Of a stretch of 64,000 bases of DNA, positions 43,625 to 62,451 are shown piece by piece. The position numbers and the translations under genes were made by a program. Source of the DNA: Alphaproteobacteria bacterium (GTDB lineage: Bacteria; Pseudomonadota; Alphaproteobacteria; Rs-D84; SZUA-605); assembly GCA_031549385.1 (NCBI GenBank), contig JAVBPW010000002.1, positions 34,271 to 98,270 of the forward strand. The letters are read 5' to 3'. Numbering within the stretch: the first letter of the stretch is position 1; every line of letters starts with the position of its first letter. The notes beneath the pieces are model-generated. The model was not told where the DNA came from and made no database searches. It was given only the letters and a program-made list of their open reading frames with translations.

Positions 43625-44311
43625 ATGAATAAAAAAAATATATTAACCGTTTTAATGTTTATAACAATTTTGTTTTGTAGTATAATTTTGTATTTTACTC
43701 AAAACTCAACGAAAAAAACAAGCAATGATTTATATAATGCGGCTGAAATAGGGGATGTTGAAAATACAAAATTTTTAATAAAAGATAATTATGATGTGAA
43801 TTATTCATGTGAAAATAATTGTAAAGGCTGGACGCCACTAATGATTGCATCTGCTAATGGTCATAAAGAAATTGTTAGTATTTTGTTGGAAAATGGAGCT
43901 GATCCTAATATTCAAAATGAATTAGGAAGAACTGCTCTTCAATATGCTGTGCGCTATGAATTTATAGAAATAATTCAAATGTTATTGGATTATAAAGCAG
44001 ACCCAAATTTAAAGGATTATACTCCTGATAATAATGAAAATGTTAATTCTCCAATGGCTGATGCATTGACGCATAAACAAAATACTAAAATCTTAAAAAT
44101 GCTAATTTTATCTGGAGGTAATCCAAATTATTCTTATTGGGATTTTACTCCTCTTATTGTTGCAGCAAGCTTTAATGATGTTTTATTAGTTAAACTTCTT
44201 CTTGAAAAAGGAGCAAATCCTTTTGTATCAAAATCAGGAATAAGTGTTGAAAATATTTCTAATAATGAAGAAATTAAAAGTTTAATTAAAAAAGCTCAAA
44301 CAAATAAATAG
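43625..44311 (+). CDS. Membrane-anchored ankyrin repeat protein
   Basis: N-terminal TM helix; GWTPLMIAS..GH..IV..LL..GADPN, GRTALQYA, TPLIVAA repeats. Confidence 0.9.
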   Translation: MNKKNILTVLMFITILFCSIILYFTQNSTKKTSNDLYNAAEIGDVENTKFLIKDNYDVNYSCENNCKGWTPLMIASANGHKEIVSILLENGADPNIQNELGRTALQYAVRYEFIEIIQMLLDYKADPNLKDYTPDNNENVNSPMADALTHKQNTKILKMLILSGGNPNYSYWDFTPLIVAASFNDVLLVKLLLEKGANPFVSKSGISVENISNNEEIKSLIKKAQTNK

Positions 44312-44477
44312 TCACCCCTCTGTTTTTGGGCATTGTATGTAAATGAGCTGAAAATCGTAAAATTTGGATTTTAAAAAGGCTTACAGGGCGACTGTATGAG
44401 CCGGAAACCCTGCAGAAGTCCGGCGGATCTGGGCAATAAAAAAGCCTTGCATACACAAGGACAATTTAGTGGTCGGG
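44309..44477. repeat. Junction repeat J1 (folded module + type A arm + TGGTCGGG core)
   Basis: Closely similar to 52193-52360; core at 44470. Confidence 0.9.
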
Positions 44478-44540
44478 AAATAAATAAAACCAGTGCAAGC
44501 CATACAGGACATGGATTTGCTAGATATATATTATCAAATA

Positions 44541-44560
44541 ACAGGGAATTTACAGGGAAA
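44541..44560. repeat. Tandem ACAGGGAA direct repeat near the element end; probable protein-binding site
   Basis: ACAGGGAATTTACAGGGAAA; weaker copy ACAGGAAATT at 44638. Confidence 0.45.
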
Positions 44561-44707
44561 ATTGATGTTTTTTGAAGGCAGTAAACTCAAAATTTCCATA
44601 TTTTCCGCCAATTCTAGCATTTTTAGTCAAAAAATTAACAGGAAATTTTAAATTAGTTATCAGGTAATAATCTTGCAAAAACAGTTAAAATTTGTAATAA
44701 TGTCAAT

Positions 44708-45175
44708 ATGTATGAAAAATTGAAAAAATATAAAAAAATCTATATTATTGGGGCATGTGGTAGTGGAAAAACAACATTTGCTCAAAAGTTGGCTAAATAT
44801 TTAGATTATCCTAATTTTACACTAGATAATGTGTACAGATATAAAGAAACTCGTGCAATTTGTTCAGAAAAAGAACGTACAAAAATATTAAACAGCATAT
44901 TAAATCAAGAAACATGGATTATAGAAGGTGCACAATGCCATGATTGGATAGAGAGCATCTGGAAAAATTGCGATATTGTAATCTTATGCAATCCATCAGC
45001 ATTAACAAGAATCTTTTACATTTCAAAAAGATATATTTTGAATTTGATAAGGGGGAAACATACAGATTTCCTGGTAGATATTTTTGCTACTATTAAATTT
45101 AAGAGAAACTCTTTGCCTAAATTTCAAGAATATGTTAAGAAACATAGAAAGGAAATTATTAAATTATTTAAATAA
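44708..45175 (+). CDS. P-loop kinase (adenylate kinase-like / FlaR topology modulation family)
   Basis: KIYIIGACGSGKTT, LDNVY, WIIEG. Confidence 0.8.
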   Translation: MYEKLKKYKKIYIIGACGSGKTTFAQKLAKYLDYPNFTLDNVYRYKETRAICSEKERTKILNSILNQETWIIEGAQCHDWIESIWKNCDIVILCNPSALTRIFYISKRYILNLIRGKHTDFLVDIFATIKFKRNSLPKFQEYVKKHRKEIIKLFK

Positions 45176-45267
45176 CCAGGACTTTTATGGTTATTTTTTA
45201 AAATATGCTGCATTTTATTCATAACAGCCAAATTACTTTATATAAAAAGAGATTTTGAAATTTTAAA

Positions 45268-45297
45268 AAATAGAGAGATTTTACAACCTCTCTATTT
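45268..45297 (-). terminator. Terminator downstream of the peptide ORF
   Basis: AAATAGAGAG...CTCTCTATTT hairpin with A-run to its left. Confidence 0.7.
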
Positions 45298-45299
45298 GG

Positions 45300-45395
45300 T
45301 TAACATTTCATCCATTGAGAAACTTCTCCACGCCAAGTAGGATTTAGTTTTGTTTCAATCCTTTTTAACGCAAGAAGTAATAGTTTTTTTTCCAT
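45300..45395 (-). CDS. 31-aa peptide MEKKLLLLALKRIETKLNPTWRGEVSQWMKC; candidate RiPP precursor
   Basis: Not in the ORF track. AAGGAG RBS 6 nt before ATG; directly downstream of rSAM/SPASM gene; followed by a terminator. Confidence 0.7.
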   Translation of the reverse strand: MEKKLLLLALKRIETKLNPTWRGEVSQWMKC

Positions 45396-45440
45396 AATTA
45401 TCTCCTTTTATTTATGTTAACATATACACAATAAATATTT

Positions 45441-46497
45441 TTATAGAACAAGTTTTTTTATTTCTTTGTAAAGTTTTTTTCTTTGTTCACAATAAACAAA
45501 TATTCCATCGTGCGCCATTAGATTGTCTTTAACTCTCGTTGCAGGACAACCATTTCCACAAAACCTGTAAAATTCACATTTATGACATTTTTCAGGCATT
45601 TGTAAAAATACTTTTTTAAAATTTTTATATGCAATAGTTTTTTGTAAATTTTGTAAATCAGTATCTAATATATTTCCATAACTAGCTAGTGATCTTAAAT
45701 ACTCACAAGGATAAAGCTGCCCTTCAGGGTCAATAGAAACCCAATTTAAACAAGATTTATCACTGCTACAAAGATTTATAGTTTTATCTGATAACCATGC
45801 AATAACTTCATCTAATTCTCTAATCATAATTTCAGGATCATTTGATTTTAACCATAAATGTAATATATCTTTAAGATATAAAAACCACTCATCTGCATTT
45901 ATGCTAAAATTATCTTCAAAAGAATCAAAAACGGGACTAAATTTAATTTCTTTAAATCCATTATTTATAACAAATTCGAAAACTTCTTTTGGATATTTAA
46001 TAAATTCCTTTGTTACTGTTATTATAACAGGGGGATTTATTCCATTATCTCTTAGAATGTTAAACTCCTCTCATTACATTTTCAAAAGAACCTATTCCGT
46101 CTTTATAAATGCGATTTGTATTATGAATTTTTTGTGATCCGTCTAAACTAATACTAACTTTAAAATCATTTTCTTTAAAGAATTTTGCAAAATCGTCTGT
46201 TATTAGTGTAGCGTTAGTTTGAATTAAGTTTTGTATTTTATGTTCTTCAGTTTTATACTTATTAAGTATTTTAACAAATGTTTTATAGAATTCAATACCG
46301 GGGATTAAAGGTTCTCCGCCATGCCAAGAAAAGAAAATATTTTTTTGATATTGAAAGAATTTTTTTACTGTTGCCTCTAGTATATTTTCTGGCATTATTT
46401 GTATTTTTTCCTTAGAGAAAGGGGCTGCATAGCAATATTTGCATTTTAAATTACAGTTGCTTCCAACTGGTTTTACTTGTATTCCAAAATTTTTCAT
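45441..46497 (-). pseudogene. Radical SAM/SPASM maturase split by a 1-nt frameshift at ~46062
   Basis: N-half CNLKCKYC, WHGGEP, QTNAT. Deleting one base from GTT TAA C gives ...GVNILRDNGINPP... open without stops into the SPASM half (YPC, CHKCEFYRFCGNGC). Could be a sequencing error. Confidence 0.85.
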
Positions 46498-48125
46498 CAC
46501 ATTTTATTCTCCTTTTTTAGTTCCATATCCATATATTTCTTAATAATTTCTTTATCATAAAATCTTATTTTACAGCTTGGAAGCATTAACATTCTGCTTA
46601 TTTGTAAATCTTCTAAAAATGGTAAGTCGTGACTTACAATAACAAGTGTTCCTCCATAATTAGTTAAAGCTTTTGCCATTATTTTTTTTGTTGGAATATC
46701 TAAATGATTTGTAGGTTCATCGAGAAGAAGTAGATTATTTTGAGCAATACATAGTCTTGCAATTTCAAGTCTGCTTCTTTCACCAGGGGATAGTGTTTTA
46801 ACTTCTTGAAAAACTTTATCACCTTTGAAGTTAAAAGAACCTAGTATTGTTCTTATTTGGCTATCGTTATAGTTTACACTTGATACTGCGTCCAAAATAC
46901 TCAATTTTTCATCTATATTTGAATGTTCTTGTTCATAATATCCTATTTTTGTTTTATTTCCAACTTTTATGCTACCTTTATCTGACTTTAATAGGCCTGC
47001 CATTAACTTTAGCATAGTTGATTTTCCAGCGCCATTTGCCCCAATAATAATAAATCGTTCATTTGGTTCAATTTCAAATTCAGCATTTTTTATAACAGGT
47101 TTATCTTGAGTATAACCGAAATTTACACTATGAACTTCAATAGGATTTTGAGTTTCTTGTTTTTCTACCTTTAAATCTATTTTAATTTCTTTTTGTTTTT
47201 TAGGTGGTTCAAGCATATTTTCTTTCATTTTATCAAGTAATTTTTCTTTACTTTGTGCCTGACGCTTCATTTTTCCAGACTTGCCTTTTTGTGTATCTAT
47301 AAATTTTTGCAAATGTTCTATTTTTAAACTTTGATTTTTTAATTGTTTTTCTAAATGTAAATTATTTTCTTCAACTTGTGATAGAAACTTCTGGTAACTA
47401 CAATTATAAATATTTGTAGATTTAGTTTGATTATCAATGTATAAAATTTTATTTGCTAATTTATTTAAAAAATCTTCGTCATGAGAGACAAATAGAACAG
47501 AAATTTTTAAATTTTTAAGGTAATCAATAACCCAATCTTTCGTTTCTTTATCTAAATGATTTGTTGGTTCGTCTAATATCAAAAATGAAGGTGCGGAATA
47601 TAATGTTCTTAAAAATGAAAGTTTAGATTTTTGCCCACCTGATAATTCTATCATTTTTTTATTTAAAATATTTTTAGGAATTTTGAAATTAGCAATGAGC
47701 TTTTCTAAATCAATATCTGCTGTATATCCACCATAATACTCAAATTGATTTTGACTTTTTTCTAATTCTTCAATTAAATAATCTGAAGAGTCTTTGCTTA
47801 ATTTTAAATATAAATCATTGATTTTTGTAGCAAGTTCTTTAACAGGTCTTCCTGAATACAAAAAATCATAAACAGATATATCATCAGGGATTTCAAGTTC
47901 ATCAATTGTTTGTGGCATCCAACCAATATGTTGGTTTGATGGAATAAATTCAATATCACCGTCATTGTAATGTAGGTTGTTTGCTATAATTTTGATTAAA
48001 GTAGATTTTCCTGCTCCATTTAAACCAGTAACTGCAATTTTATCTCCATCGCTAACACTAAAATTTACATCTTTAAAAATAAGATGATCAGCATAAGACT
48101 TTGAAAGATTTTTTACAATAAGCAA
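46497..48125 (-). CDS. ABC-F family ATPase
   Basis: Two ABC domains (GLNGAGKST/LSGGQ/LDEPTNHLD; GANGAGKST/LSPGE/LDEPTNHLD) joined by a linker; no TM segments. Confidence 0.93.
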   Translation of the reverse strand: MLIVKNLSKSYADHLIFKDVNFSVSDGDKIAVTGLNGAGKSTLIKIIANNLHYNDGDIEFIPSNQHIGWMPQTIDELEIPDDISVYDFLYSGRPVKELATKINDLYLKLSKDSSDYLIEELEKSQNQFEYYGGYTADIDLEKLIANFKIPKNILNKKMIELSGGQKSKLSFLRTLYSAPSFLILDEPTNHLDKETKDWVIDYLKNLKISVLFVSHDEDFLNKLANKILYIDNQTKSTNIYNCSYQKFLSQVEENNLHLEKQLKNQSLKIEHLQKFIDTQKGKSGKMKRQAQSKEKLLDKMKENMLEPPKKQKEIKIDLKVEKQETQNPIEVHSVNFGYTQDKPVIKNAEFEIEPNERFIIIGANGAGKSTMLKLMAGLLKSDKGSIKVGNKTKIGYYEQEHSNIDEKLSILDAVSSVNYNDSQIRTILGSFNFKGDKVFQEVKTLSPGERSRLEIARLCIAQNNLLLLDEPTNHLDIPTKKIMAKALTNYGGTLVIVSHDLPFLEDLQISRMLMLPSCKIRFYDKEIIKKYMDMELKKENKM

Positions 48126-48189
48126 TAAACACCTCTCTGGTTATATATAGTTTATACATTTTTTGTTAATATTCAAGTATAAATAGAAG

Positions 48190-48789
48190 TTATTTATTAT
48201 TTTCTACAAACCAAGTTGCAAATATATTTAAACTTCCTTCTGATTTTCCACCAGAATAGTATTGATTAACTTCGTCTTCTGTCATTTCTGCCATTCTTTT
48301 TTGAAATCTTTCAATCCAAACAATCTTCCATAAAACAGACCAAGCCAAAGGTGAATCTACTTTACTAATTTCATTAGCAATTGATACTTCACCACCTTTT
48401 CTGTGGAATTGATGTTCCTGACCATTAACATCAATATATGTTGCAGTACTTACAAATTTAGCATTTCTATTTTCAACGCCATTCATCAATTTTATAATTC
48501 CTTCTGCCCCCAAAGTTTGATTTATATATTTAGTATAAACTCCAGGAAATCCTTTTAATGCTTCAATTGCAAAACCGCCATCTTCTACTAAAACAGGTTC
48601 TTTTAATTGTTCAAAGGCCTGTCTTGCTTTGAATAGTGATACTTCAGAAAAGTTATCAGCTTGAGGTTCAATCAAATTCAAATTCAAATTAGTAGGAACA
48701 ATTTCAATATCAGAACGACCCAAACTTACAAAAAAGTTTTGTAATGTTTTTGCTTTTCCTGCATTTGAAGTAATTAAGTGTATTTTCAT
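48190..48789 (-). CDS. Non-canonical purine NTP pyrophosphatase (Ham1/ITPase family)
   Basis: LITSNAGK, KARQAF, VEDGG..I.ALKGFPGVYTK; the C-terminal SHR motif is not conserved. Confidence 0.8.
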   Translation of the reverse strand: MKIHLITSNAGKAKTLQNFFVSLGRSDIEIVPTNLNLNLIEPQADNFSEVSLFKARQAFEQLKEPVLVEDGGFAIEALKGFPGVYTKYINQTLGAEGIIKLMNGVENRNAKFVSTATYIDVNGQEHQFHRKGGEVSIANEISKVDSPLAWSVLWKIVWIERFQKRMAEMTEDEVNQYYSGGKSEGSLNIFATWFVENNK

Positions 48790-49097
48790 TAATCTATCCT
48801 TTTGATTTGAACCGCAATTAGTCCATATTTATTTTGTTCTTTTTCAGAAAACCATTTATTTAAATGTCTTCTTAAATTTTCTTTATCCATATTTATTTTT
48901 GCAGCTTTAATATAGCTTGTAATTTTATTACTACTATTAATATTGTTTTTATTTAATAAATTATTTTTTAATAGATTATTTGTTGAATTTGATCTGCCAC
49001 CATGAGTTGAACAGCTTCGTTGGTAAGCAGATATCTTTTTACCATTTCTAGTATGGGAACTAACTGAAATAGTTCCACTACATTTATTTTTAGACAT
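48789..49097 (-). CDS. Small hypothetical protein (possibly a fragment)
   Basis: Stop overlaps the ITPase start (TAATG); first gene after the repeated promoter. Confidence 0.45.
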   Translation of the reverse strand: MSKNKCSGTISVSSHTRNGKKISAYQRSCSTHGGRSNSTNNLLKNNLLNKNNINSSNKITSYIKAAKINMDKENLRRHLNKWFSEKEQNKYGLIAVQIKRID

Positions 49098-49110
49098 AAT
49101 GTTTCTTTTG

Positions 49111-49235
49111 TTTAAAATTAGTTAATAAAAAAGACCACGGAAACCGTGGTCAAATTAGATATAAAAAATGGACGCAATTCGCCCATATAACTAAAAAATA
49201 TTATACAATATTTTTATTAAAAAGTCAAGGAAATT
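49111..49235 (-). promoter_or_regulatory. Repeated promoter + structured leader/terminator, copy 1
   Basis: Minus-strand TTGACT (49228-49223)-N17-TATAAT (49205-49200), then hairpins TGGGCGAATTGCGTCCA and GACCACGG-TTT-CCGTGGTC-TTTTTT; homologous to 62063-62187. Confidence 0.8.
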
Positions 49236-49350
49236 TTATAGACAAACCGCAATCAGCATTTATGTTGTTGCACTTCTCTGTCATCTCAGAAATTTGTGAA
49301 ACGCAGTTTTGAGCAAATATTCGAGGGATCTAATTCGCTGAAACCTAAAG

Positions 49351-49521
49351 TAGTGACACCGCCAAATTCGCCATTGTATGTAAGTTGAGCAATTTTAGCT
49401 AAAAAGCCATACCAAAAAGGCTTACAGTATCAATATTTGAAAAAATATCGGCTGTGAGTGGCTGTGTGTGCGGAGTGGTTGAAATAATAAAAATCTCGAT
49501 ATTCAAGAATTTAAATGGTAG
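49351..49521. repeat. Junction repeat J2 (folded module + type B arm + TGGTAG core)
   Basis: Closely similar to 62208-62380; core at 49516. Confidence 0.9.
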
Positions 49522-49658
49522 TTCGCTCAAGATTCGAATTTGCAACATCAAAGGTATCTTTGCCTTTACCAGCCTTGATTTGCGAGACTTTAGGCGATTT
49601 GTGGCTAGGTTATGAAATTTACCTCAATCTTGCCAAAGACCACAAAAACATCGCCTAG
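49516..49658. repeat. Right-arm repeat P', copy 1 (tRNA-3'-end mimic + hairpins)
   Basis: Homologous to 60838-60979; first 34 nt match the tRNA-Pro 3' end at 22/34 positions without gaps. Confidence 0.85.
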
Positions 49659-49860: not shown

Positions 49861-50958
49861 ATGGGTAGCTTTGTATTAAAAAGATTTCCTAAGATTTTAG
49901 ATGATTTTCCTAAAAATCAAGATACTTTTGCTGCAGAAAATAAGCTATCCAGATATGACGGTATGGTGGAATTTGTATATTCTCCGGAAATATTAACCTC
50001 TATATTATTCTATCAAGAATCTGTTATGTCATCAAGGCTGGAAGGAACAGTTGCTACAATAACTGATATTTTAAATTACAAAGTTGGTAAAGACCTTTCT
50101 GAAAGAATAGAGGCAGATGCAACAGAGATAGAAAATTATAAAGATGCTTTGGGATATTGTATAAAAGAAGTAGAAGACAATAATTTTGTTATAACTGCTT
50201 CCCTTATTAAAAATATACAAGCTATTTTATTAAATCAATCAAGAGGGAAGGATAAATTAAAGGGAAAATTTAAGGAAAAACAAAACTATATAGGAAATAA
50301 ATTTGATGGAAAAATAACATATACTCCTGTTTCCCATTTACATACAGAAGAATATATGAATGAATTAATAAATTTTATAAATTCAAATACAAATATGAAT
50401 CCTATAGTAAAGATTGCTTTCATACATGCTTATTTTGAATTAATACATCCTTTTGAAGATGGAAATGGACGTGTTGGGAGAATATTAATTCCAATATTGT
50501 TAAAAAAGTATGGAGTTTTATCTACACCTTATTTTTATATAAGTTATTATCTGTCAAAACATAGAAATAATTATATTAATTCTCTTGAGGCAATTTCTAA
50601 GAATAATGATTGGGAAAAGTGGATAAACTTTTTTATAGAAGTAATAGAAAAGCAAACAGATATGCTTATAAAAATGCTTAGAAGATTAAAAGAAATTAGG
50701 AAAGAAACAGAAGATAAATTATCTTTATTAAAATCTCAATTTAATATTCAAGTCTTAAATTTCTTATTTAGAAGGATTAAATTTACTACAACAACATTTA
50801 TAAAAGAAACTGGACTAAATGGTAATACCGCTAGAGCTTTGTTAAAGTCTATGGAAGAAAATGGAATATTGGAAACTGAAGAAAGAGGTTTGGGACAAGC
50901 TCCGTCAATTTATAGATTTGTTGATTTATATAAAATGGTTGAGGAAATTTCAGAATAA
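49861..50958 (+). CDS. Fic family protein with C-terminal winged-helix domain
   Basis: SSRLEG inhibitory helix; canonical HPFEDGNGRVGR; palindrome TGTATTATAATACA (49812-49825) upstream may be an operator. Confidence 0.92.
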   Translation: MGSFVLKRFPKILDDFPKNQDTFAAENKLSRYDGMVEFVYSPEILTSILFYQESVMSSRLEGTVATITDILNYKVGKDLSERIEADATEIENYKDALGYCIKEVEDNNFVITASLIKNIQAILLNQSRGKDKLKGKFKEKQNYIGNKFDGKITYTPVSHLHTEEYMNELINFINSNTNMNPIVKIAFIHAYFELIHPFEDGNGRVGRILIPILLKKYGVLSTPYFYISYYLSKHRNNYINSLEAISKNNDWEKWINFFIEVIEKQTDMLIKMLRRLKEIRKETEDKLSLLKSQFNIQVLNFLFRRIKFTTTTFIKETGLNGNTARALLKSMEENGILETEERGLGQAPSIYRFVDLYKMVEEISE

Positions 50959-51201: not shown

Positions 51202-52191
51202 ATGAAACAAAAAGTAATGTTAACAGGCGTAAGACCTAGCGGAAATATAACGTTAGGGAATTATTTAGGAGCTATTAGAAACTTTGTAAACAAACAAGAT
51301 TTATATAAAAGCTACATATTTATAGCAGATTTGCACGCAATAACTTCATACAGAAATCCAGTTGAATTAAAAAATGCGATTTACGATTGTATAAAAATGT
51401 ATATGGCTTGTGGAGTTGATATAAATAATACAATAATCTTCAAACAAAGTGATGTTTTGGAGCATGGAGTATTGGGATTTATTATGACTTTTCAAACAAG
51501 ACTTGGAGAGTTATATAGAATGACACAATTCAAACTTCAATCTCAAAATATTGGAAAAGACGGAATAGATACGGGGCTTTTGATTTATCCTACTTTAATG
51601 GTGGCCGATATTTTACTATATGACACTGATATTGTTCCAGTTGGTTTAGACCAACAACAGCATGTGGAATTATCGCGAGATTTATCACAAAGGTTTAATA
51701 ATAAATATGGAAAAACTTTTAATGACCCTGATGTTTATATAACTCCAATTGGTAATAAGATTTTGAACTTGCGAAATCCAAATGAAAAAATGAATAAATC
51801 TGATAATGGGGATAATATGGGAACTATATTTCTTATGGATGATGTAAAATTGGCTAGAAAAAAGATAATGTCAGCAGTAACCGATAATGAAGGAATAGTT
51901 AAATTTGATTTGGAAAACAAACCTGGAATTTCTAATCTTATTAGTATTTTATCTTGCATAACAAATGAACCCATAGAAAGTATTGAACAAAAATTTGAAA
52001 GTAAAGGATATGCTATTTTCAAGGAAGAAGTGGCAAATATGGTATGTAATTTATTATCTCAAATACAGAAAAACTATAAAAAATATGACAATAATATGGT
52101 TGATGAAATTTTAGCAAATGGGGCAAATCAAGCAAGAATAAAGGCTGGCGAAACTTTGATTAAAGCTAAGGAAAAATTAGGGCTAAGTTAA
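51202..52191 (+). CDS. trpS: Tryptophanyl-tRNA synthetase, bacterial type (island-borne)
   Basis: TGVRPSG.ITLGNYLGA, ADLHAIT, YPTLMVADILLY, VPVGLDQQQH, KMNKS. Confidence 0.95.
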   Translation: MKQKVMLTGVRPSGNITLGNYLGAIRNFVNKQDLYKSYIFIADLHAITSYRNPVELKNAIYDCIKMYMACGVDINNTIIFKQSDVLEHGVLGFIMTFQTRLGELYRMTQFKLQSQNIGKDGIDTGLLIYPTLMVADILLYDTDIVPVGLDQQQHVELSRDLSQRFNNKYGKTFNDPDVYITPIGNKILNLRNPNEKMNKSDNGDNMGTIFLMDDVKLARKKIMSAVTDNEGIVKFDLENKPGISNLISILSCITNEPIESIEQKFESKGYAIFKEEVANMVCNLLSQIQKNYKKYDNNMVDEILANGANQARIKAGETLIKAKEKLGLS

Positions 52192-52192
52192 A

Positions 52193-54589: not shown

Positions 54590-55227
54590 TGTTAATAGTT
54601 TTTGATGGGCTTGATGGAGTTGGTAAAACTACTTTAGCTAAAGAAATAGCTAAAAAATTTGAAGCGAAATACTTTAGATGTTTTCTTCCAAATGATGAAA
54701 TGAAATTAAAAACATTAATAAATAACAAAGAAAATTCAATAAATATTCATAAAAATAGTATTAAATATATAGAAAAAAGATGTTGTAAGATTTTATCTTT
54801 TTTAAAATCTAATAAAAATGTAGTTTTAGACAGATATATATATTCAAGTATTGCCTACTATTATGCTATAACAAAAATGGAAAAAAATATTGTGAAAATA
54901 ATAGATTACAATGATTTTAATTTATTAAAACCAAATGCAAGTTTCATAATCTTACTAGATGCTAAAAATATAAAATATCGTAGCAAAAATAAATTATTAG
55001 ATAATACAGATAAATTAAGTATTTATAATAAATTTTTTATAAAAAATGTAACAAATTGTTTCAATTTTTTTCAAGAAACAGAGGATATATTTTTTATAAA
55101 AAATAATAATAATTTAAATAAAACAATATCAAAAATATTAGATATACTAAATAATGTTAAAGATACTAAACCTAATTATTGGATTGGGGAAGAATCTATA
55201 AATAAAATTTTATTTAAGCTTAAATAA
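54589..55227 (+). CDS. Thymidylate kinase-like nucleoside monophosphate kinase
   Basis: IVFDGLDGVGKTT P-loop; VVLDRYIYSSIAY. Confidence 0.85.
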   Translation: MLIVFDGLDGVGKTTLAKEIAKKFEAKYFRCFLPNDEMKLKTLINNKENSINIHKNSIKYIEKRCCKILSFLKSNKNVVLDRYIYSSIAYYYAITKMEKNIVKIIDYNDFNLLKPNASFIILLDAKNIKYRSKNKLLDNTDKLSIYNKFFIKNVTNCFNFFQETEDIFFIKNNNNLNKTISKILDILNNVKDTKPNYWIGEESINKILFKLK

Positions 55228-55258: not shown

Positions 55259-55259
55259 A

Positions 55260-56459
55260 TCAGCTTTTTTTTAACAAGAAAAATCCCAATTTTCCAACTC
55301 TTAATCTTAGATCTGTTTCTGCATTGATTAATTCATTTTCATTGGTAATTTTTTCTTCATTGATACTTACTGCGTTTTGTTTCAGTAACCTTCTTATTTC
55401 TGAATTTGATAATTCAGGTTTAGCTTTTTTAATAGCTTGCAGTAAAGAGGTTCCTTCATCAATTAAAATAACAGGAGCGGTTTCAGGAAAAGATTTGTTT
55501 GAAAATGTCATCAGAAAAGCTTCTCTTGCAGAATCTGCAGCTTCTTTCCCATGAAAAATTCTAACAACTTCCCAAGCAGTAAATACTTTAGCATCTCTAG
55601 GATTATTCTTTATGTTTAATGCCTTAATTTCATCTAAAGGAACGCGAGTATCATTAATAAGTACTGGTTCTATCATTTGATCTGTAAGGGACATAATTTT
55701 TCCAAACATATCCTGAGCGGTCGAATTTAAGAAAACACCCGTGCCATTCGATTTTGACATAAGTTCCCCTGTGATAGGATCTTCCATTAAGTTAACAGCT
55801 ACAACGAACTTTTCCTTATTTTTAAGCTTTTTTATTAGGGTTCTTCCCATTAAAGCATTAAAAACTTGGTCTGTTCCGCAAAGCTCTACATCAACATCTA
55901 ATGCAACACTGTCATATCCTTGAAATATAGGATAGATAAATTCGCTAAGATGCACTGGCCTATTTTCAGACATTCTTTTTTGAAACATATCTCTTTCCAA
56001 CATTCTTTGAACTGTTGTAGTAGACAATAATTCAATTAATTCTGAAACGGACATCTTGTCGAACCATGTACTATTTAAAACCACTTTAGCAGGATTGATA
56101 GGATCATCAAAATTTATGATACCTTTTATTTGATTTACCCAGCTTTTGATATTTTCCCTAGCTTTTTCTCTAGTTAAAATAGTTCTAGCAGAAGTTCGAT
56201 CACTAGGATCTCCAATACAGGCAGTCAAATCACCGAATAACACAAAAACCTTATGTCCCATCAATCTAAATTCTTCAAGCAACATAAAATTCTTTGCATG
56301 GCTTAAATGAAGAGAGTCACCTGTAGGATCAGCCCCTATGTAAAACTTCATAGGTTTATCTGATAATAAGCGTTCCTTAAATTCACTTTCAGAGGGAATA
56401 ATTTCTTTTATTATTCCTCTTGATAAGATTTTTTCGATTTTTTCTAATTTATTTTCCAT
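55260..56459 (-). CDS. tyrS: Tyrosyl-tRNA synthetase, bacterial type (second copy)
   Basis: YIGADPTGDSLHLSH, IGDPSDR, YPIFQGYD, ELCGTDQVFN, LMSKS, C-terminal S4 domain (SNSEIRRLLKQNAV...RVGK). Confidence 0.95.
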   Translation of the reverse strand: MENKLEKIEKILSRGIIKEIIPSESEFKERLLSDKPMKFYIGADPTGDSLHLSHAKNFMLLEEFRLMGHKVFVLFGDLTACIGDPSDRTSARTILTREKARENIKSWVNQIKGIINFDDPINPAKVVLNSTWFDKMSVSELIELLSTTTVQRMLERDMFQKRMSENRPVHLSEFIYPIFQGYDSVALDVDVELCGTDQVFNALMGRTLIKKLKNKEKFVVAVNLMEDPITGELMSKSNGTGVFLNSTAQDMFGKIMSLTDQMIEPVLINDTRVPLDEIKALNIKNNPRDAKVFTAWEVVRIFHGKEAADSAREAFLMTFSNKSFPETAPVILIDEGTSLLQAIKKAKPELSNSEIRRLLKQNAVSINEEKITNENELINAETDLRLRVGKLGFFLLKKS

Positions 56460-56573
56460 GTTTATTTATATATAATTTTTAGCCTTAAAAGTCAAGACAA
56501 TATATTATTGAATAAATGTTAAAATATCAATAAAAAAGTCAATTATTCTCCACAAACCACGTTGCAAATATAT

Positions 56574-57614
56574 TTAAACTTCCTTACTTACAAATTTAGC
56601 ATTTCTATTTTCATAACCATTAACACCTGCATAATCCCATACATTTGTACGATAGCGACCATGTATACCCAGTTCTACATTATTTATATGTGAAGCCGCT
56701 CCATGCTTATAAACAAAAACTAATTCATGTTTTGAACGATAAAAAGAACCCATTCCACCAGATGTTTTATTCCAAACACAAAGATTTTTCATCTCTGTAT
56801 AAATTTGTTCACAGGCTGTTGTCATTTCCATAATATGTCTCCAGTCCATACAAATGTAATGAAGAGAACCATCAGTGGAATAATTGGTCAAATGACCGAA
56901 AACATTTTTCAAAAAATCTGTAAATTCATCTTGTGACATTTCACCACTTGCCATAGCAAATTCATCATGCTTTGTTTTTCCTAGCCCGCAAACATGACCA
57001 GTTATTTTAACATTATAAGGTGGGTCAGTAAAAATCATTTGAGCTTTATCTTTTCCCATTAAAATAGAAAAACTTTCATCTTTAAGACTATCTCCACAAT
57101 ATATTAAGTGATTTCCAAGTTGCCATAAGTCACCAAGTTTACTAACAGTATTCTCTTCAATTTCAATGACTTCATCCATAGGGTCTTTATCTTCACCATT
57201 AATATTTTGAATCATAAGGTCTATTTCTGGTAGCTCAAAACCAGTTACTTCCAAATCAAAATTTAGCTCTAAATCAGATAAGTCTTTAAGTTCTAAACTT
57301 AAAAGGTCTTCATCCCAACTTCCATTTAACGTAAGCTTATTATCTGTAATTCTGTAGGCTTTCTTTTGGGATTGTGTTAAATGGTCTAAAATAACACAAG
57401 GAACTTTTTCTAATTTTAGTTCTCTTGCAGCTAACCATCTCCCATGTCCTGCAAGTATTTCATTATTTTCATCAATTAAGATTGGGTTAGTAAAATCAAA
57501 AGTTTCAATAGAAGAAACTATTTGGCATACATGTTTATCATTATGAATACGAGCATTTTTTTCGTAAGGTTTTATATCTTTTACGGCGATATAGTTTATT
57601 TTTAATTCTGGCAT
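56574..57614 (-). pseudogene. ParB-N-domain DNA methyltransferase (N6/N4), C-terminally truncated
   Basis: PYEKNARIH, AGHGR, TDNKL (ParB/Srx); FTDPPYNV motif IV; ends soon after NVWDYAG with no HPT/FxGSG SAM-binding motif. Confidence 0.8.
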
Positions 57615-57824
57615 ATTTGCCTCCTCTTAAGTTTTTGTTATTATCATGGCAATCACCTCCTTTTTTAATACTATCTCGATTCTATAAAAATTTTTTACAA
57701 ATGTCAAATGGGTAACTTTTAAATATATTCGTATATCAAACACTTATACTATATTATAATATAGTATAAGGACTTGACTTTCTGTCTTTTCAAGCAGTTA
57801 TAGTTGTTAACAAAGGAGACTGAT

Positions 57825-57995
57825 GTGTACAAAAAACCACCTATAAACCATAGATTTCAGAAAGGAAAGTCCGGGAATCTGAATGGGAGGCCGAAAAGCA
57901 AAGAATTCTACCTTATTGACTTGACTTCCACCTTCTTCCAAGAGTTAATTGTGCGGTGTATGTTCGTAAATCGACAGAGAAAGGCTTGGAGTTAG
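57825..57995 (+). pseudogene. DUF5681-like fragment
   Basis: AAGGAG RBS + GTG; YKKPP..HRFQKGKSGN..GRPK motif, then runs out of frame into the recombinase. Confidence 0.6.
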
Positions 57996-59566
57996 AATTC
58001 AATTCGCTCCAAAATCAAGAGGAAGCTTGCAAAGCCTATATAATGTCACAGGCTTTTAATGAATGGCATCATTATAAAACCTATACTGACGGAGGGATTT
58101 CTGGTGGGACTATGGAAAGGCCTGCGTTGAAACAAATGCTAGATGATATTTCCAAAGGATTGGTGAAAACAGTACTTGTTTATAAGGTAGACAGACTTTC
58201 AAGGTCTATCATGGATTTCCACAATATGATGAAGGATTTAGAAAAATATAATTGCAACTTTGTGTCTATCACACAGGCTTTTGATACATCGACTTCTATG
58301 GGTAAATTGACTTTGAATATGTTATTATCCTTTGCTCAATTTGAAAGAGAGGTTTCGTCAGAGCGTGTAAGGGATAAAATTTATGCAAGTAAAATGAAGG
58401 GCTTTTGGATGGGTGGAACACCACGACTTGGTTATGATATTGTTGATAAAAAGTTAATAGTAAATGAAGTTGAAGCAAAATTAGTTAAGCATATTTTTGA
58501 AACATATTTAGAAATGAGTTCTATCAGAGAATTAACTTTATATTTGAGAAGACACAAAGTTGTTAACAAAAAATGGATTACTAAAGACGGAATTGAACGA
58601 GGCGGAACGGAGTTTTTAGGGTCATCAATCCACAGAGTTTTAAGGGATCATATTTATATTGGCGAAGTGGAAAGTCGAAGAACTAAAGAATTCTTTAAAG
58701 GGCAACATAAACCTATTATAGAACAAGAATTATTTGATAAGGTGCAGGAGAAATTGAGTACTCACAATTATCGAAATAGTTCGAGTTGTTCTGCTTCAAA
58801 TAACCTTTTGAGTGGGAAGCTGTTTGATGATAAGGGAGAGCAATTTATAAATCAAGCCACCAGTAAAAGTCAAAAAAATCATAGAAAATACTATGCTATC
58901 AAGGGGTTTTATTTGCATGCAACTCAAGTGGATAGATTTGCAAAAGATGTTGTCAACGAGGCTCTGAATATAGATATTAATAAAATAGGAACTATACTTA
59001 AACAAATAAATTTCAAAGAAATGAATTACTTCAATCAGAAGGATTTTATAAAGGCTTTTGTAAAAAAAGTTATTTATCAAGAGGACAAATTGACCTTCTT
59101 TTTTAACCTAAACGATGAAAATTTGAATGGATTTATTCAGGAAGATTATATAAATTCTTCCAATGAAACCAAGGAATATATTGTTGATAATGTTAATAAT
59201 CAAATAATTCTTGAGCGAGAATTCTACTTTCAAAAAAATATGAAAAGCACAAAATATAATGCAGGTAAGACGGGGTTGATGAGTGTAACAGATAATCAAC
59301 AATCCATAGTGAGAGCATTTTCCTATGCTTGGAAGTTTAAACAAATGTATGAAGAATGTGGCAATATAAAGCAAATTATGCAATCAGAGAAAGCAAATCT
59401 TAGAACTGTTTACAGATATTTAAATCTAGCTTATTTATCTCCAAATATAATAAATGGATTTATGAATGGAAAATTAAATTTTGATATCAGAGAACTATTT
59501 ATACTAGCATCAAAATATGATAATTTCAAAGAACAGGAACATTATTTGATTGAACATAATTTATAA
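57956..59566 (+). CDS. Large serine recombinase (resolvase + recombinase domains); native start apparently lost
   Basis: (VNCAV)YVRKS catalytic Ser, DGGISGG..ERPAL, VYKVDRLSRS, NMLLSFAQFERE, GYD, HKPII; in-frame TGA at 57917 and no RBS. Confidence 0.92.
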   Translation: MYVRKSTEKGLELEFNSLQNQEEACKAYIMSQAFNEWHHYKTYTDGGISGGTMERPALKQMLDDISKGLVKTVLVYKVDRLSRSIMDFHNMMKDLEKYNCNFVSITQAFDTSTSMGKLTLNMLLSFAQFEREVSSERVRDKIYASKMKGFWMGGTPRLGYDIVDKKLIVNEVEAKLVKHIFETYLEMSSIRELTLYLRRHKVVNKKWITKDGIERGGTEFLGSSIHRVLRDHIYIGEVESRRTKEFFKGQHKPIIEQELFDKVQEKLSTHNYRNSSSCSASNNLLSGKLFDDKGEQFINQATSKSQKNHRKYYAIKGFYLHATQVDRFAKDVVNEALNIDINKIGTILKQINFKEMNYFNQKDFIKAFVKKVIYQEDKLTFFFNLNDENLNGFIQEDYINSSNETKEYIVDNVNNQIILEREFYFQKNMKSTKYNAGKTGLMSVTDNQQSIVRAFSYAWKFKQMYEECGNIKQIMQSEKANLRTVYRYLNLAYLSPNIINGFMNGKLNFDIRELFILASKYDNFKEQEHYLIEHNL

Positions 59567-60676
59567 GTGTATAAAATAAAAATTATGAATAATATTAACT
59601 TAGATGATTTTTTTGAAGAAAGAGAATGCACCTATAAAGATGAAAGATACTCTGTTCGCGATAATGGAGCAGTAATAAAATATCCTCGTGAAGGCAAACG
59701 ACCCCGTCCAACTGACAATCAATGGACTTTTGGAGTTCCAAACCGCAGAACAGGCTATATGGAAATTGCTTCAGCCCGTATACATAGAATAGTCGCTACA
59801 GCTTTTCATGGTGAAGCCCCAACAAAAGAACATGTTGTTGACCATATTGATACAAATCGTAAAAATAACCGTCCAGAAAATTTACGATGGTTAACAAGAT
59901 TAGAAAATGCATTACAAAATCCTATAACAGTTAAACGTATTATATATGCTTGTGGTAGTATAGAAGCATTTTTAGAAAATCCTTCTATATTACAGGAAAA
60001 TGCTATTGAACAAGATTACCAATGGATGCGTACAGTTAGTATTGAAGAAGGACAAGCTAGTTTAAAACGATTACTTGAATGGGCTGCAAATGATATATCT
60101 TCATCTGAAGGAAAATCTTTAGGAGAATGGTTATTTAAACAATATACTCCTAAAGCTACAAAAAAAATAATTAATGAAGATGTGTTTTCTAAACCTACAA
60201 AAAATTTTGACTTTAGTGAAATTACTACAAAAGGACAATTGGTTGAAAAATCACAAGCAGAAAAGACGGAAGAAATTTCTGATTTAGTAGTATCAAAAAC
60301 GCCAAATGCTGTTCAAAGAGATTGGAATATTCCTAGTGAATTTCCATGTTGCCCTAAAGAAATTGGCAAAAATCCAATTCAAGATTATGCTGAAAATTTA
60401 AAACAAGATTTAATATTTTGTCGTAATGACATATACTTTTCTAAAGTCTATAAAAGTGGATTATCAATAGATAATAAATCTATATGTGTAATATCTGAAG
60501 CTTCAAATGAGGGAGCTGTAAAACCTTTTGCTCTTGCTAAAATTACTTACAAAGATGGTTTATTTGTACATACAAGTCTTGGCACATTTTTTTCAGAAGA
60601 AGGAGCTGACAAACAATTCACTATCGAAAGAGGATTGGAATGGACTGGTGGCGATAGTATTGATGATTATTGTTAG
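59567..60676 (+). CDS. HNH endonuclease domain protein (alternative start ATG 59585)
   Basis: IHRIVATAFHG...VVDHIDTNRKNNRPENLRWLT. Confidence 0.88.
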   Translation: MYKIKIMNNINLDDFFEERECTYKDERYSVRDNGAVIKYPREGKRPRPTDNQWTFGVPNRRTGYMEIASARIHRIVATAFHGEAPTKEHVVDHIDTNRKNNRPENLRWLTRLENALQNPITVKRIIYACGSIEAFLENPSILQENAIEQDYQWMRTVSIEEGQASLKRLLEWAANDISSSEGKSLGEWLFKQYTPKATKKIINEDVFSKPTKNFDFSEITTKGQLVEKSQAEKTEEISDLVVSKTPNAVQRDWNIPSEFPCCPKEIGKNPIQDYAENLKQDLIFCRNDIYFSKVYKSGLSIDNKSICVISEASNEGAVKPFALAKITYKDGLFVHTSLGTFFSEEGADKQFTIERGLEWTGGDSIDDYC

Positions 60677-60679
60677 AGT

Positions 60680-60843
60680 TTTGACACCGCCAAAATCGGC
60701 AAGGTATGTAAACCCTTCAGAAAAGGCAAAATCTGAGAATTAATGTGGCTTACAGTGTCAAAGATAACCTTGAAAGCCCGCAGAAGTCCGGCGGATTGGG
60801 GCAATAAAAAAGCCTTGCATACACAAGGACAATTTAATGGTCG
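60680..60843. repeat. Junction repeat J4 (folded module + type A arm + TGGTCG core)
   Basis: Arm near-identical to J1/J3; module ends (TGACAC/GTGTCA) like J2/J5; core at 60838. Confidence 0.9.
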
Positions 60844-60979
60844 TTCGCTCAGGATGCGAATTTGCAACATCAAAGGTATCTCTGCCTTTACCAGCCTTGA
60901 TTTGCGATACTTTCGGCTCTTTGTGGCGAGGTTAACAGAATTACCTCATATGTCGCCAAAGCCCATAAAACATCGCCTA
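60838..60979. repeat. Right-arm repeat P', copy 2
   Basis: Homologous to 49516-49658; 23/34 ungapped match to the tRNA-Pro 3' end. Confidence 0.85.
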
Positions 60980-61399
60980 CAAATGAATAATTTCAACATC
61001 TGGAAAATGAGATAGTAAATACTCAGCAACTAAACGACGATGGCACTGGTCAGGAAGTTTTTCAGTACACAAAAAACAAATTCCGTCTAACATTTCAGGA
61101 ATAAAGAATTTCTCAACTTTCCTTTCTTTTAAGATATTATTTAAAATTTGCTCATAACCAGTCCAATCAATCCCATTATTTTTATAGGTTTCTAGCAATT
61201 CTTTAGTTGGGGCAAGTTCAGGAAAATTCTTATATTTATTGCCTAACTTTTCCTGCAAATTTTTCCCGCTTGCCCAAGGAACAAAACGAGCTGTTCTCCA
61301 TAATCTAATATCTGCCAAAGTTTTCACTCCAGCAGATTCTAATATGTCAAAAAACATATCTTCTTTTTTCCCAGCAAAGCCAATAGTATAAATTTTCAT
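60977..61399 (-). CDS. DUF488 family protein
   Basis: MKIYTIGF, LADIR, ELAP, FLCTEK.P.QCHRRLVAEYL; start overlaps the upstream stop (TGATG). Confidence 0.88.
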   Translation of the reverse strand: MKIYTIGFAGKKEDMFFDILESAGVKTLADIRLWRTARFVPWASGKNLQEKLGNKYKNFPELAPTKELLETYKNNGIDWTGYEQILNNILKERKVEKFFIPEMLDGICFLCTEKLPDQCHRRLVAEYLLSHFPDVEIIHL

Positions 61400-62046
61400 C
61401 AATATAAAAATACTCCATTCAACATTAAATAACAATGATTATCTTGTATCAAAAATGGGCGAGCAAGTCCTATTCTTAGATGGACATATTTTGCATCGTT
61501 TAACATATTGTTTAATTTTTCTACATCTTTAGTTTTTTCAAAAATATCTCTTAAATATTTTGAACTAACTTTCAGATCATATTTTTTATCGGAAGAATCC
61601 ATAACCTTTGCTCTTAATTTTCCATTTTCAATGAAAAACTCCATTTTACTTGTAGGAATTACAATAGCTCCAAGTGACGCACATTTTGTTTTTTTATGAA
61701 TATATGAATTATATATAACATTATCATCAAAAATAGTTTGAATATCTTTTGATACGCTATCTTTTAACAATTGCGCCAATTTTCCATCTGGTTGATATAT
61801 TTCTAATACTTTAATAGAATCTAAATTTATATTAGTATCCTCTGTTTGATGAGGGTAATCTCTTAAAGTTGTTAATGGTTCATTTTCTACATTAATTACA
61901 GAATATGTAGGAATATCTTTTTCATCCCAATACATATTGTCTATTAGTAGTCTTTTCATTCTTTTTTCGCCAATATCCCAACCAGCAATACAGAATTTTT
62001 CTTTCATACAAGTAATGTCTGAAATAATTATATTTGATTTTTTCAT
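61399..62046 (-). CDS. Dual OB-fold domain protein
   Basis: N-terminal FCIAG..., PHQTED, SLG.I, LRIGLARPF...CY...NG; DUF488 neighbour. Confidence 0.7.
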   Translation of the reverse strand: MKKSNIIISDITCMKEKFCIAGWDIGEKRMKRLLIDNMYWDEKDIPTYSVINVENEPLTTLRDYPHQTEDTNINLDSIKVLEIYQPDGKLAQLLKDSVSKDIQTIFDDNVIYNSYIHKKTKCASLGAIVIPTSKMEFFIENGKLRAKVMDSSDKKYDLKVSSKYLRDIFEKTKDVEKLNNMLNDAKYVHLRIGLARPFLIQDNHCYLMLNGVFLY

Positions 62047-62062
62047 GAATAAATCCTTAGTT

Positions 62063-62187
62063 TTTAAAATTAGTTAATAAAAAAGACCACGGAAATCGTG
62101 GTCTAAATTGATATAAAAAATGGACGCAATTCGCCCATGTAACTGAGAAAGATTGTACAATATTTTTATCAAAAAGTCAAGGAAATT
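62063..62187 (-). promoter_or_regulatory. Repeated promoter + structured leader/terminator, copy 2
   Basis: TTGACT (62180-62175)-N17-TACAAT (62157-62152); same two hairpins as 49111-49235. Confidence 0.8.
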
Positions 62188-62207
62188 CGTGTTGCTGAAG
62201 CCCGAAG

Positions 62208-62380
62208 TAGTGACACCAGCAAATTCGCCATTGTATGTAAGTTGAGTAATTTCAGCTAAAAAGCCATACCAAAAAGGCTTACAGTGTCAATATTGAAAAA
62301 AATATTGGCTGTGAGTGGCTGTGTTCGCGGAGTGATTGGGGTAATAAGAAATCTTCGATATTCAAGGATTTAAATGGTCG
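62208..62380. repeat. Junction repeat J5 (folded module + type B arm abutting the tRNA-Pro CCA end)
   Basis: Closely similar to J2; core TGGTCG at 62375 is the tRNA 3' end. Confidence 0.9.
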
Positions 62381-62451
62381 GGGAAACAGGATTCGAACCT
62401 GCGACACCTAGTTCCCAAAACTAGTACTCTACCAGACTGAGCTATTCCCCG
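62375..62451 (-). tRNA. tRNA-Pro (UGG)
   Basis: CGGGGAATAGCTCAGTCTGGTAGAGTACTAGTTTTGGGAACTAGGTGTCGCAGGTTCGAATCCTGTTTCCCCGACCA; C1:G72, anticodon TGG. Confidence 0.97.

Follow-up and report, generated by a model that had tools for sequence, protein, structure and literature searches.

How did 19 kb of accessory genes come to be arranged between serS (42037–43377) and the tRNA-Pro(UGG) gene, beyond which queA is located, in the 0.93-Mb genome of an Alphaproteobacteria bacterium? This question is raised by the 64-kb stretch of DNA analysed here, hereafter the window, which represents the last 64 kb of contig C4 in a metagenome bin (97% complete, 30% GC, 8 contigs; source genome, G000) and whose DNA was found in one public sequencing run, labelled invertebrate gut metagenome. 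Five junctions subdivide the accessory stretch into four units and a preceding ankyrin-repeat unit, which together encode a single recombinase, a large serine recombinase (LSR). The original prediction had interpreted the locus as an integron-like array of non-autonomous cassettes, which are mobilised in trans and stacked at one tRNA gene. Our analysis leads to a partly different view, according to which the locus is probably a composite island that arose by repeated integration of one family of phage-derived LSR elements at the CCA end of tRNA-Pro(UGG), followed by decay through deletion.

All five junctions (J1 to J5) were recovered from the sequence at the predicted coordinates and with the predicted unit sizes, i.e. 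5046, 2838, 8484 and 1537 bp for units 1 to 4, with the ankyrin-repeat unit designated unit 0. Each junction is centred on a core TGGT(C/A)G, which reads TGGTCG at 44470 (J1), 52354 (J3), 60838 (J4) and 62375 (J5) and TGGTAG at 49516 (J2), and which is the reverse complement of the CCA end, the discriminator base and the first two acceptor bases of tRNA-Pro. The sequence TGGTCG occurs five times in the window, and all four copies within the array region are junction cores. Gapped comparison of the 100 nt left of the cores revealed identities of 0.89 (J1–J3), 0.81 (J1–J4) and 0.84 (J3–J4) among the left arms of type A and of 0.87 between the type B arms of J2 and J5, as compared to 0.63–0.69 for A-versus-B pairs and to 0.59 ± 0.03 (maximum 0.68) for random 100-mers from the window. 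On the opposite side of the core, the right, J2 and J4 share an arm designated P' (identity of 0.88 over 100 nt and of 0.93 over the first 30 nt; see Table 1 for the full length), and the remaining pairs of right arms are at background level over 100 nt. Partners change exactly at the core: J2 joins a B arm to P', J4 an A arm to P', and J5 a B arm to the tRNA gene. Thus, the predicted left-arm types, the shared P' arm and the switch at the core are borne out by identities well above those of random 100-mers. However, A and B, albeit separable by identity, are better regarded as diverged forms of one module, as a single profile built from arms detects all five. BLAST searches with each arm and P' module against the whole genome returned copies at the array locus only.

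The right arm of J1, previously classified as 'other', is indeed unlike the P' arms of J2 and J4 over 100 nt. However, it bears a ACAGGGAA-N3-ACAGGGA repeat (44541–44557) that is also present in relatives, in which ACAGGGAA-type repeats are located 35–85 nt from the core in five internal or attL junctions. Since a repeat of the P' sides of relatives is thus found right of J1, this arm represents a bona fide, P'-type left end of an element. J3 had been read as an A arm joined to the interior of a gene. Its right arm does contain a truncated decarboxylase-like open reading frame (ORF) with a weak match to MfnA (residues 44–90), which is, however, preceded by ~17 nt resembling the right arm of J1. 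As predicted, cargo genes abut the repeats, with their stops at the edges of the modules or inside them: the ankyrin stop codon (44309–44311) falls within the A module of J1, which starts at 44306/7; the end of the gene for tryptophanyl-tRNA synthetase (TrpRS) at 52191 coincides with the start of the J3 arm module; the HNH gene ends at 60676 and the J4 arm module begins at 60674–60677; and the P' homology extends to 60979, exactly as far as the DUF488 stop codon (60977–60979). When the junctions were inspected by eye only, their dyad symmetry was not convincing. The first 30 nt of P' align in register with the acceptor/T-arm of the tRNA at 0.60 identity, and P' was also considered as a decayed tRNA gene; this idea was dropped, as P', when aligned freely and locally with each of the genome's 37 tRNAs, performed no better than shuffled sequences.

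Which enzyme might have generated these joins? The single Resolvase-family match that profile scans returned for the entire genome resides in the 8484-bp unit 3, in agreement with the prediction that no other unit encodes a recombinase. Its Pfam domains are Resolvase (PF00239, 3e-38) and Recombinase (PF07508, 2.4e-15); a zinc-ribbon yielded no Pfam match in this protein. The block Y-x-R-K-S-T is unchanged across 11 aligned homologues. Among PDB sequences, the catalytic domain matches the TP901-1 integrase at 2.3e-30, and profile matches include the A118 integrase at residues 164–332 and SprA at residues 61–378. A structure model (mean pLDDT 72) found full-length serine integrases as best Foldseek matches (E 1e-13), with a low TM of 0.25 reflecting that the domains are posed differently. 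Judged from sequence and model, the protein is a bona fide LSR. It is not a Ccr protein, as NCBIfam CcrB scores it at 142 bits versus a cutoff of 900. The nearest homologues in named records derive from bins labelled 'uncultured Alphaproteobacteria' and 'Candidatus Enterousia'. A homologue with 54% identity is encoded, together with a ParB-methylase and DUF5681, in GenBank entry MT839917.1 ('Bacteriophage sp.', faecal virome, 5365 bp), indicating that relatives of these elements occur in virus-particle preparations; this record stops 120 nt past the LSR gene, before any arm, and therefore no attP is visible in it.

To place the LSR in context, we considered 41 genomes of the order including the source genome, of which 22 encode LSR homologues, and 16 LSR loci were fetched from this set. 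In 11 of the 16 loci, a tRNA gene (Pro, Ser, Gly/Tyr, Arg or Lys) is located on the opposite strand within ~2.2 kb of the LSR 3' end. A second set comprised 80 loci from many phyla, retrieved with an LSR profile and scored for tRNA genes within 2.5 kb. A convergent tRNA gene is present downstream of the LSR in 37 of them, targets being tRNAs for Gln (12), Ser (11), Met (4), Ala (4) and, in single cases, six other amino acids. By comparison, a tRNA gene on the same strand downstream and any tRNA gene upstream were each seen in only one of the 80 loci. Furthermore, within a single genus the sequence that follows tRNA-Pro and tRNA-Ser(GGA) varies by genome, with the break located exactly at the TGG of the CCA end. 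Collectively, these counts and the divergence at the CCA end tie this LSR clade to tRNA 3' ends, making it the best candidate for the driver of the array, as had been proposed. The identity shared between the P' end and the tRNA spans 6–8 bp in every case, in the window as well as in relatives, which fits a serine recombinase rather than the long tRNA duplications of tyrosine integrases. Pro-targeting LSRs share 44–53% identity, equal to their identity with Ser-targeting ones, and hence target choice cannot be mapped to a protein lineage.

The LSR genes of relatives are followed by ~160 nt of homologous sequence, the arm, which ends ~10 nt before the CCA end of the tRNA. Using nhmmer, a profile built from 19 arms detected all five junctions of the window and 18 sites in relatives. 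A covariance model located the arm in 13 of the 41 genomes, namely the source genome and 12 of the 15 members of family f5, in one to four copies each. Thirteen of the 19 arms are 159–163 nt long. Conserved blocks comprise (T/G)TGAC-N18-GTATGT and, ~45 nt further on, ACATAC; a GC-rich hairpin comes next, and the last hairpin, a terminator, is located ~10 nt short of the core. The terminal hairpin of the A arm scores as a minus-strand terminator and would consequently terminate the tRNA transcript. The sequences GTATGT and ACATAC could form a 6-bp helix, which covaries (87.5% paired, seven double-change cells, a result reached by 1 of 500 shuffles) and includes G–U pairs on the LSR-sense strand, lending modest support to this inner helix being real. 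In GC-rich relatives, an analogous CAGAGA...TCTCTG pair was seen by eye. An outer long-range helix is not general, as only 2–12 of 16 sequences are paired per column; RNAalifold returned no consensus structure for the raw MAFFT alignment of the arms, and none of the arms matched an Rfam family at E values up to 1. Likewise, an attC-like overall symmetry was not found in the arm, and by-eye comparison revealed no complementarity between arm and target tRNA that would point to a guide RNA.

Two further observations concern the arms. The B arms contain an extra 125 nt, which on the minus strand (49133–49228 and 62084–62180) exhibit a strong sigma-70-like promoter and two terminator-like hairpins. 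This promoter/leader precedes the 102-aa ORF at J2 (49111–49235, minus strand) and DuOB at J5, and from its sequence it may represent an attenuator-type leader. Relative G009 harbours arms at tRNA-Pro, tRNA-Ser(GGA) and tRNA-Ser(UGA) and no LSR homologue in its genome, indicating that arms outlive the recombinase or are kept for another reason.

Arrays with the same arm-core-P' grammar exist in relatives. Three relatives' arms precede TGGCGG(T/G)G and unrelated DNA instead of a tRNA gene; these sites are internal junctions of tRNA-Ser-targeting elements, and right sides of such internal junctions carry the repeat described above for J1. At the outer end of the G005 array (contig C3), non-arm DNA is joined to TGGCGGAG and P' in an attL-type junction, followed by a 10.6-kb unit with an LSR fragment only, an internal junction, a complete element of 19.5 kb and finally tRNA-Ser. 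Genome G017 (contig C4) contains three arms within 29 kb, accompanied by one full LSR gene, one LSR fragment and two DuOB-DUF488 pairs beside arms. In G023 (contig C12), a 4.8-kb unit lacking an LSR gene is enclosed by two arms at tRNA-Pro, and an intact LSR gene is present elsewhere in this genome. The LSR fragments in distal units point to decay. Cargo of the relatives includes restriction-modification and GmrSD/HEPN genes. Relatives thus contain arrays with the same grammar, but none of their 18 loci inspected has the flanks of the window locus. Therefore, no empty site or alternative cassette order was found for the window locus. The boundary of the tRNA-Pro element of G021 was compared to G009, which revealed differing inserts and a left break without core, but no attL. 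Similarly, the left flank of the G005 attL has no homology beyond ~10 nt to the regions downstream of tRNA-Ser in G019 and G031, and hence an occupied/empty relation is not proven for G005.

Comparison to the complete G005 element also exposes the decay of unit 3. The former encodes, in this order, a ParB-methylase (436 aa), DUF5681 (125 aa), a TerL-like terminase, T5orf172, two methylases with an AlwI-type endonuclease, GmrSD_N and HEPN proteins, DUF2924, the LSR and a 262-aa ORF, followed by the arm and tRNA-Ser. In unit 3, TerL and DUF2924 are missing, DUF5681 is reduced to a stub, and the ParB-N/methylase domain covers profile positions 2–116 of 221 as compared to 2–219 of 221 in G005. Its gene is fused at the 3' end to two fragments of a Ham1-like gene (56542–56621), 8 kb away from the Ham1 gene itself. 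Unit 3 is thus a deletion derivative. The LSR gene is affected as well: ten homologues begin with MPxIKCAVYVRKST, located 6–8 residues upstream of the first usable start in the window, which is a valine inside the conserved block (first strand). As the only serine recombinase of the genome lacks its start codon, the array is probably frozen and inactive in the source genome today.

From these observations, the following scenario can be drawn. A complete element, as found in relatives, consists in fixed order of a P' left end, often with ACAGGGAA repeats, genes for the ParB-methylase, DUF5681 (TerS-like) and the TerL-like terminase, mostly defence cargo, DUF2924, the LSR and the ~160-nt arm, which ends in a bidirectional terminator ~10 nt before the core. 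The element would circularise to yield an arm-core-P' site and recombine with the CCA end of the tRNA within the 6–7 bp core TGGTCG(G). Since the core comprises the CCA end, the discriminator and the first acceptor pairs, the tRNA would be left intact, and the arm would supply a new terminator. A later element would then recombine with the tRNA-proximal junction, placing arm-core-P' inside the island and arm-core-tRNA at its end, and older or redundant copies would lose genes by deletion. The repeats, the junction grammar, the family-wide association of LSR and arm with tRNA 3' ends, and the arrays and decayed units of relatives are directly observed; catalysis of the joins by the LSR, the crossover inside the core and the order of arrival we infer.

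Several points speak against this scenario and have to be balanced with the evidence above. The outer attL of the array was not found between serS and the ankyrin gene, the range 43000–44470 being devoid of a TGGT[CA]G core. A P' arm of the type seen at J2 and J4 was not detected in the loci of relatives, and in none of the 18 loci inspected in relatives is queA or serS a neighbour of tRNA-Pro, the closest queA being 58% identical. The LSR frame of the window is open at the position of the homologous start, but no ATG, GTG or TTG codon is present there. In addition, unit 3 contains the only tRNA-Tyr gene of the genome (see below), and part of this unit may therefore be fixed or even native DNA. 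It is also formally possible that the four tyrosine recombinases encoded elsewhere in the genome were the actors. Finally, canonical serine integrases use attB as the partner of attP and do not accept attR or attL in its place. Stacking therefore needs an explanation, as the enzyme must accept arm-core-tRNA as target; by analogy, half-site similarity as in the staphylococcal cassette chromosome (SCC) would be one possibility.

How do other explanations compare? The arm mosaic could mainly result from homologous recombination, gene conversion and deletion between the 65–310 bp arm repeats of a few complete elements. Indeed, the last 65 nt of the J4 arm are 98% identical to those of J3, with the 5' parts diverged, and the Ham1 fragments at the end of the ParB-methylase gene, the DUF5681 stub adjoining the LSR gene, the split radical SAM gene and the truncated decarboxylase gene attest to frequent illegitimate events. 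Nonetheless, partners switch at the 6-bp core rather than at variable points in the arms, copies are 82–93% identical and thus not recent duplicates of each other, and the same arm-core-P' grammar recurs in unrelated arrays, which renders this explanation rather unlikely. Alternatively, the locus could be a working cassette system, in which the LSR acts in trans to release recombinase-less units as circles and to put them back at the tRNA gene. In units 1, 2 and 4, both ends are preserved and LSR remnants are absent, cargo stops adjoin the arms, and arm-bounded units lacking an LSR gene recur, as in G023, as does the DuOB-DUF488 pair beside arms in G017 and the window. Moreover, the sequence and length of the arm are kept even when no LSR gene is nearby, as exemplified by the three arms of G009, and recombinase-less units are known from an LSR system in SCC composites. 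However, no circle or alternative order was seen, the G009 arms fit relics equally well, no unit recurred in identical or near-identical form at a second site, and pattern scans, two of metagenome contigs with the A arm and P' and one of viral contigs with the A arm, gave no or only short chance matches. Hence, the site-specific stacking put forward in the original prediction stands, but a resident LSR without start codon, the decay of distal units as witnessed by the LSR fragments of relatives, and unit 3 being a deletion derivative speak against mobilisation in trans. We consider a system that still operates in this way doubtful, and trans mobilisation of LSR-less units as such possible.

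Two other accounts fare much worse. Tyrosine recombinases serve most tRNA-targeting elements, and four such genes (PF00589) are present in the genome, all of them on other contigs (C2 and C7) and none on that of the window. An island inserted by a tyrosine integrase that has since been lost or is encoded elsewhere, with the LSR as a passenger, is nevertheless highly improbable: Pfam scans found no tyrosine recombinase gene or fragment at the array locus, element ends and tRNA share 6–8 bp rather than a long tRNA segment, and in relatives the arm adjoins an LSR gene or LSR fragment, with 37 of 80 loci linking the clade to tRNA 3' ends. A contig misjoined at the repeated modules would have to be envisaged for an assembly artefact, given that the genome was binned from a metagenome as 8 contigs and that the one public run containing the stretch is possibly its source. 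As the repeats are short and 82–98% identical, i.e. not collapsing identical copies, as GC content is even across the region, and as several other assemblies independently exhibit this architecture, we deem this the least credible of all explanations. Thus, a composite island of successively integrated and decaying LSR elements accounts best for the data.

A more far-reaching idea is that the arm is a cis-acting, folded part of the recombination site, as RNA or as single-stranded DNA, rather than a mere terminator and spacer, and that jointly with the 6–7 bp CCA-end core and a P' end it enables the LSR clade to insert, excise and shuffle recombinase-less cargo in trans at tRNA ends. We regard this as a long shot. 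If true, it would constitute a serine-recombinase counterpart of the integron, supplying reduced genomes with defence genes, spare aminoacyl-tRNA synthetases and a tRNA. A conserved arm at constant spacing, if needed for recombination, would be new for serine integrases and relevant to integrase engineering.

Table 1. Junctions, genes and target site of the array. Positions refer to the window; nhmmer E values were obtained with the arm profile.
Feature	Position	Strand	Evidence or remark
Unit 0: ankyrin-repeat protein with N-terminal hydrophobic segment	43625–44311	+	Pfam Ank 1.1e-32
J1: A-type arm with terminator hairpin	44306–44469	+	nhmmer E 3e-24
J1: core TGGTCG(G) and P'-type element left end	44470–44562	+	ACAGGGAATTTACAGGGA repeat at 44541–44557
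Unit 1: P-loop NTPase	44708–45175	+	domain scan
Unit 1: radical SAM/SPASM gene, split in two ORFs	45441–46500	-	domain scan
Unit 1: ABC-F ribosomal-protection-like ATPase	46497–48125	-	NF000355, 403 bits vs cutoff 380
Unit 1: Ham1-family NTP pyrophosphatase	48190–48789	-	domain scan
Unit 1: 102-aa ORF	48789–49097	-	ORF
J2: B-type long arm	49111–49515	+	module ~49349–49515; nhmmer E 2.2e-17
J2: core TGGTAG and P' copy 1	49516–49657	+	86.7% identical over 143 nt to copy 2
Unit 2: SoFic-type Fic protein	49861–50958	+	SoFic 2.8e-90
Unit 2: second, divergent TrpRS	51202–52191	+	37% identical to other TrpRS
J3: A-type arm	52191–52353	+	nhmmer E 2e-23
J3: core TGGTCG(G) and damaged left end of unit 3	52354–52921	+	PLP-decarboxylase-like C-terminal fragment
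Unit 3: tRNA-Tyr(GUA)	52986–53070	+	tRNA search
Unit 3: viperin-like radical SAM protein	53091–53963		PADLOC pVip 'associated with kinases', 6.9e-21
Unit 3: 209-aa ORF	between viperin-like gene and kinase gene		ORF
Unit 3: dTMP-kinase-like kinase	54589–55227		PDC-M51B/VakA
Unit 3: bacterial-type tyrosyl-tRNA synthetase (TyrRS)	55260–56459	-	TIGR00234, 318 bits
Unit 3: truncated ParB-N/DNA methylase	56542–57614	-	346 aa vs 436 aa in G005
Unit 3: DUF5681 stub adjoining LSR gene, other frame	57804–57995	+	profile positions 2–20 of 77
Unit 3: LSR	57956–59566	+	frame intact over 536 aa; start codon lost
Unit 3: HNH_3 homing-endonuclease-like protein	59567–60676	+	domain scan
J4: A-type arm	60674–60837	+	nhmmer E 1.3e-26
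J4: core TGGTCG and P' copy 2	60838–60979	+	module comparison
Unit 4: DUF488 (PDC-M45C) and DuOB gene pair	60977–62046	-	domain/defence profiles
J5: B-type long arm adjoining tRNA gene (attR-type junction)	62063–62374	+	nhmmer E 8e-17
tRNA-Pro(UGG), target site	62375–62451	-	intact, CCA encoded; 66.4 bits

The cargo of the array is listed in Table 1. Units contain 1–10 genes on both strands and have their own promoter-like sites. For the HNH_3 protein encoded directly behind the LSR, no homologue was found in this position in relatives. The second TrpRS of unit 2 has its counterpart on contig C7 (G000:C7:62551–63546). Outside the array, the window also encodes a second TyrRS of archaeal/eukaryal type (3688–4842, plus strand; NF006330, 383 bits), and the two TyrRS types share 23% identity over just 75 residues. 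The TyrRS of the array is 29–34% identical to those of relatives, as compared to 49–58% for queA. The only tRNA-Tyr gene that ARAGORN detects in the 8 contigs is the one in unit 3, located next to the viperin-like operon and the TyrRS gene. Thus, either loss of unit 3 would be costly, or part of the unit is native DNA.

Overall, GC content is even across the array region. It drops to 0.207 at 54000–54999, comprising the 209-aa ORF and the kinase gene, versus ~0.30 elsewhere, which is consistent with a foreign origin of the viperin operon. A paralogue of the split radical SAM/SPASM gene of unit 1 is located at 27325–28431 of the window and is 30–37% identical to it, and an ORF of 3665 aa (30967–41964, plus strand) lies directly upstream of serS. 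On contig C2, ARAGORN called two tRNAs side by side (G000:C2:66626–66796), one irregular and the other with the anticodon CTA (labelled Pyl); this may reflect an amber suppressor, or the call may be false.

With respect to known systems, the closest analogues of the array are SCC composite islands in mechanistic and tycheposons in ecological terms, not integrons. The likeness to integrons is that cargo units gather at one site, each with a structured, recombination-proximal element at its end. However, integrons employ the tyrosine recombinase IntI, an attI site with the promoter Pc, single-stranded attC hairpins and mostly promoter-less single-gene cassettes, none of which is seen here, where multi-gene units carry promoters of their own. 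The term integron-like, used in the original prediction, is therefore a loose analogy. Its statement that no prior description was known turned out to be too strong, as tycheposons, the prophage AcaML1 and SCC composites are precedents.

SCC elements are reported to be integrated by LSRs at the 3' end of one conserved gene, to form tandem arrays with internal att sites and some att-bounded units without recombinase, and to use a short core with degenerate inverted half-sites (PMC13739063). On this description, the array resembles SCC in its tandem units, which are parted by internal att-type junctions and partly lack a recombinase. Unlike SCC, which relies on Ccr and an attB in rlmH, it targets a tRNA CCA end through a recombinase that is not Ccr, has a phage-like backbone (ParB-methylase, TerS/TerL-like proteins, DUF2924) and a structured ~160-nt arm beside the core, and resides in reduced-genome gut Alphaproteobacteria-like bacteria. 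Tycheposons of Prochlorococcus are described as cargo elements at few tRNA genes, where newcomers push older elements inward and remnants build up an island; 27 of 937 contain a large serine recombinase, and stacking at tRNA genes is likewise described (bioRxiv 10.1101/2020.12.28.424599). Site-specific integration at a tRNA gene with stacking is thus common to both. In contrast, tycheposons mostly possess tyrosine recombinases, partial-tRNA repeats of ~40 nt and in many cases a replication module with primase, helicase or polymerase. The repeat of the array is 6–8 bp long, Pfam scans of 38 ORFs of window and G005 element detected no replication protein, and the terminase-like module and the conserved arm set this family apart.

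Phages provide further relatives. The recombinase of AcaML1, a 59-kb prophage of Acidithiobacillus caldus reported to reside in the tRNA-like ssrA gene between 10-bp direct repeats (PMC3826726, Table 2), is the closest named and characterised phage relative of the LSR (45% identity over 313 aa, the catalytic half). Unlike the array of short units described here, AcaML1 is a full prophage at tmRNA, with no array or LSR-less units mentioned in the cited passages. In phage WO of Wolbachia, a ParB-N methylase is encoded at one prophage end and DUF2924 directly upstream of the serine recombinase (PMC10299305). WO recombinases are 31–32% identical to the LSR of the window over full length. WO phages are large tailed prophages, for which the cited sections state neither targeting of tRNA ends nor arrays of short units (PMC10299305). 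Neither the arm nor LSR arrays at tRNA genes turned up in the literature covered, supplements and subscription journals lying outside its scope. What is new here is the location of LSR-built composite islands, equipped with a conserved and structured arm, at the CCA end of a tRNA gene; island growth by stacking was already known.

Serine integrases have been known as inserting within genes, and tRNA ends were regarded as the territory of tyrosine integrases. The present data reveal that an LSR clade of wide distribution is linked to the CCA ends of many different tRNAs, with only a 6–8 bp core and the tRNA kept intact. In gut bacteria with genomes of ~0.9 Mb, this clade builds multi-unit islands, whose cargo corresponds to what reduced genomes lack flexibility in: defence, represented here by viperin with its kinase, SoFic and DUF488-DuOB, an ABC-F protein, a second TrpRS and TyrRS, and the sole tRNA-Tyr.

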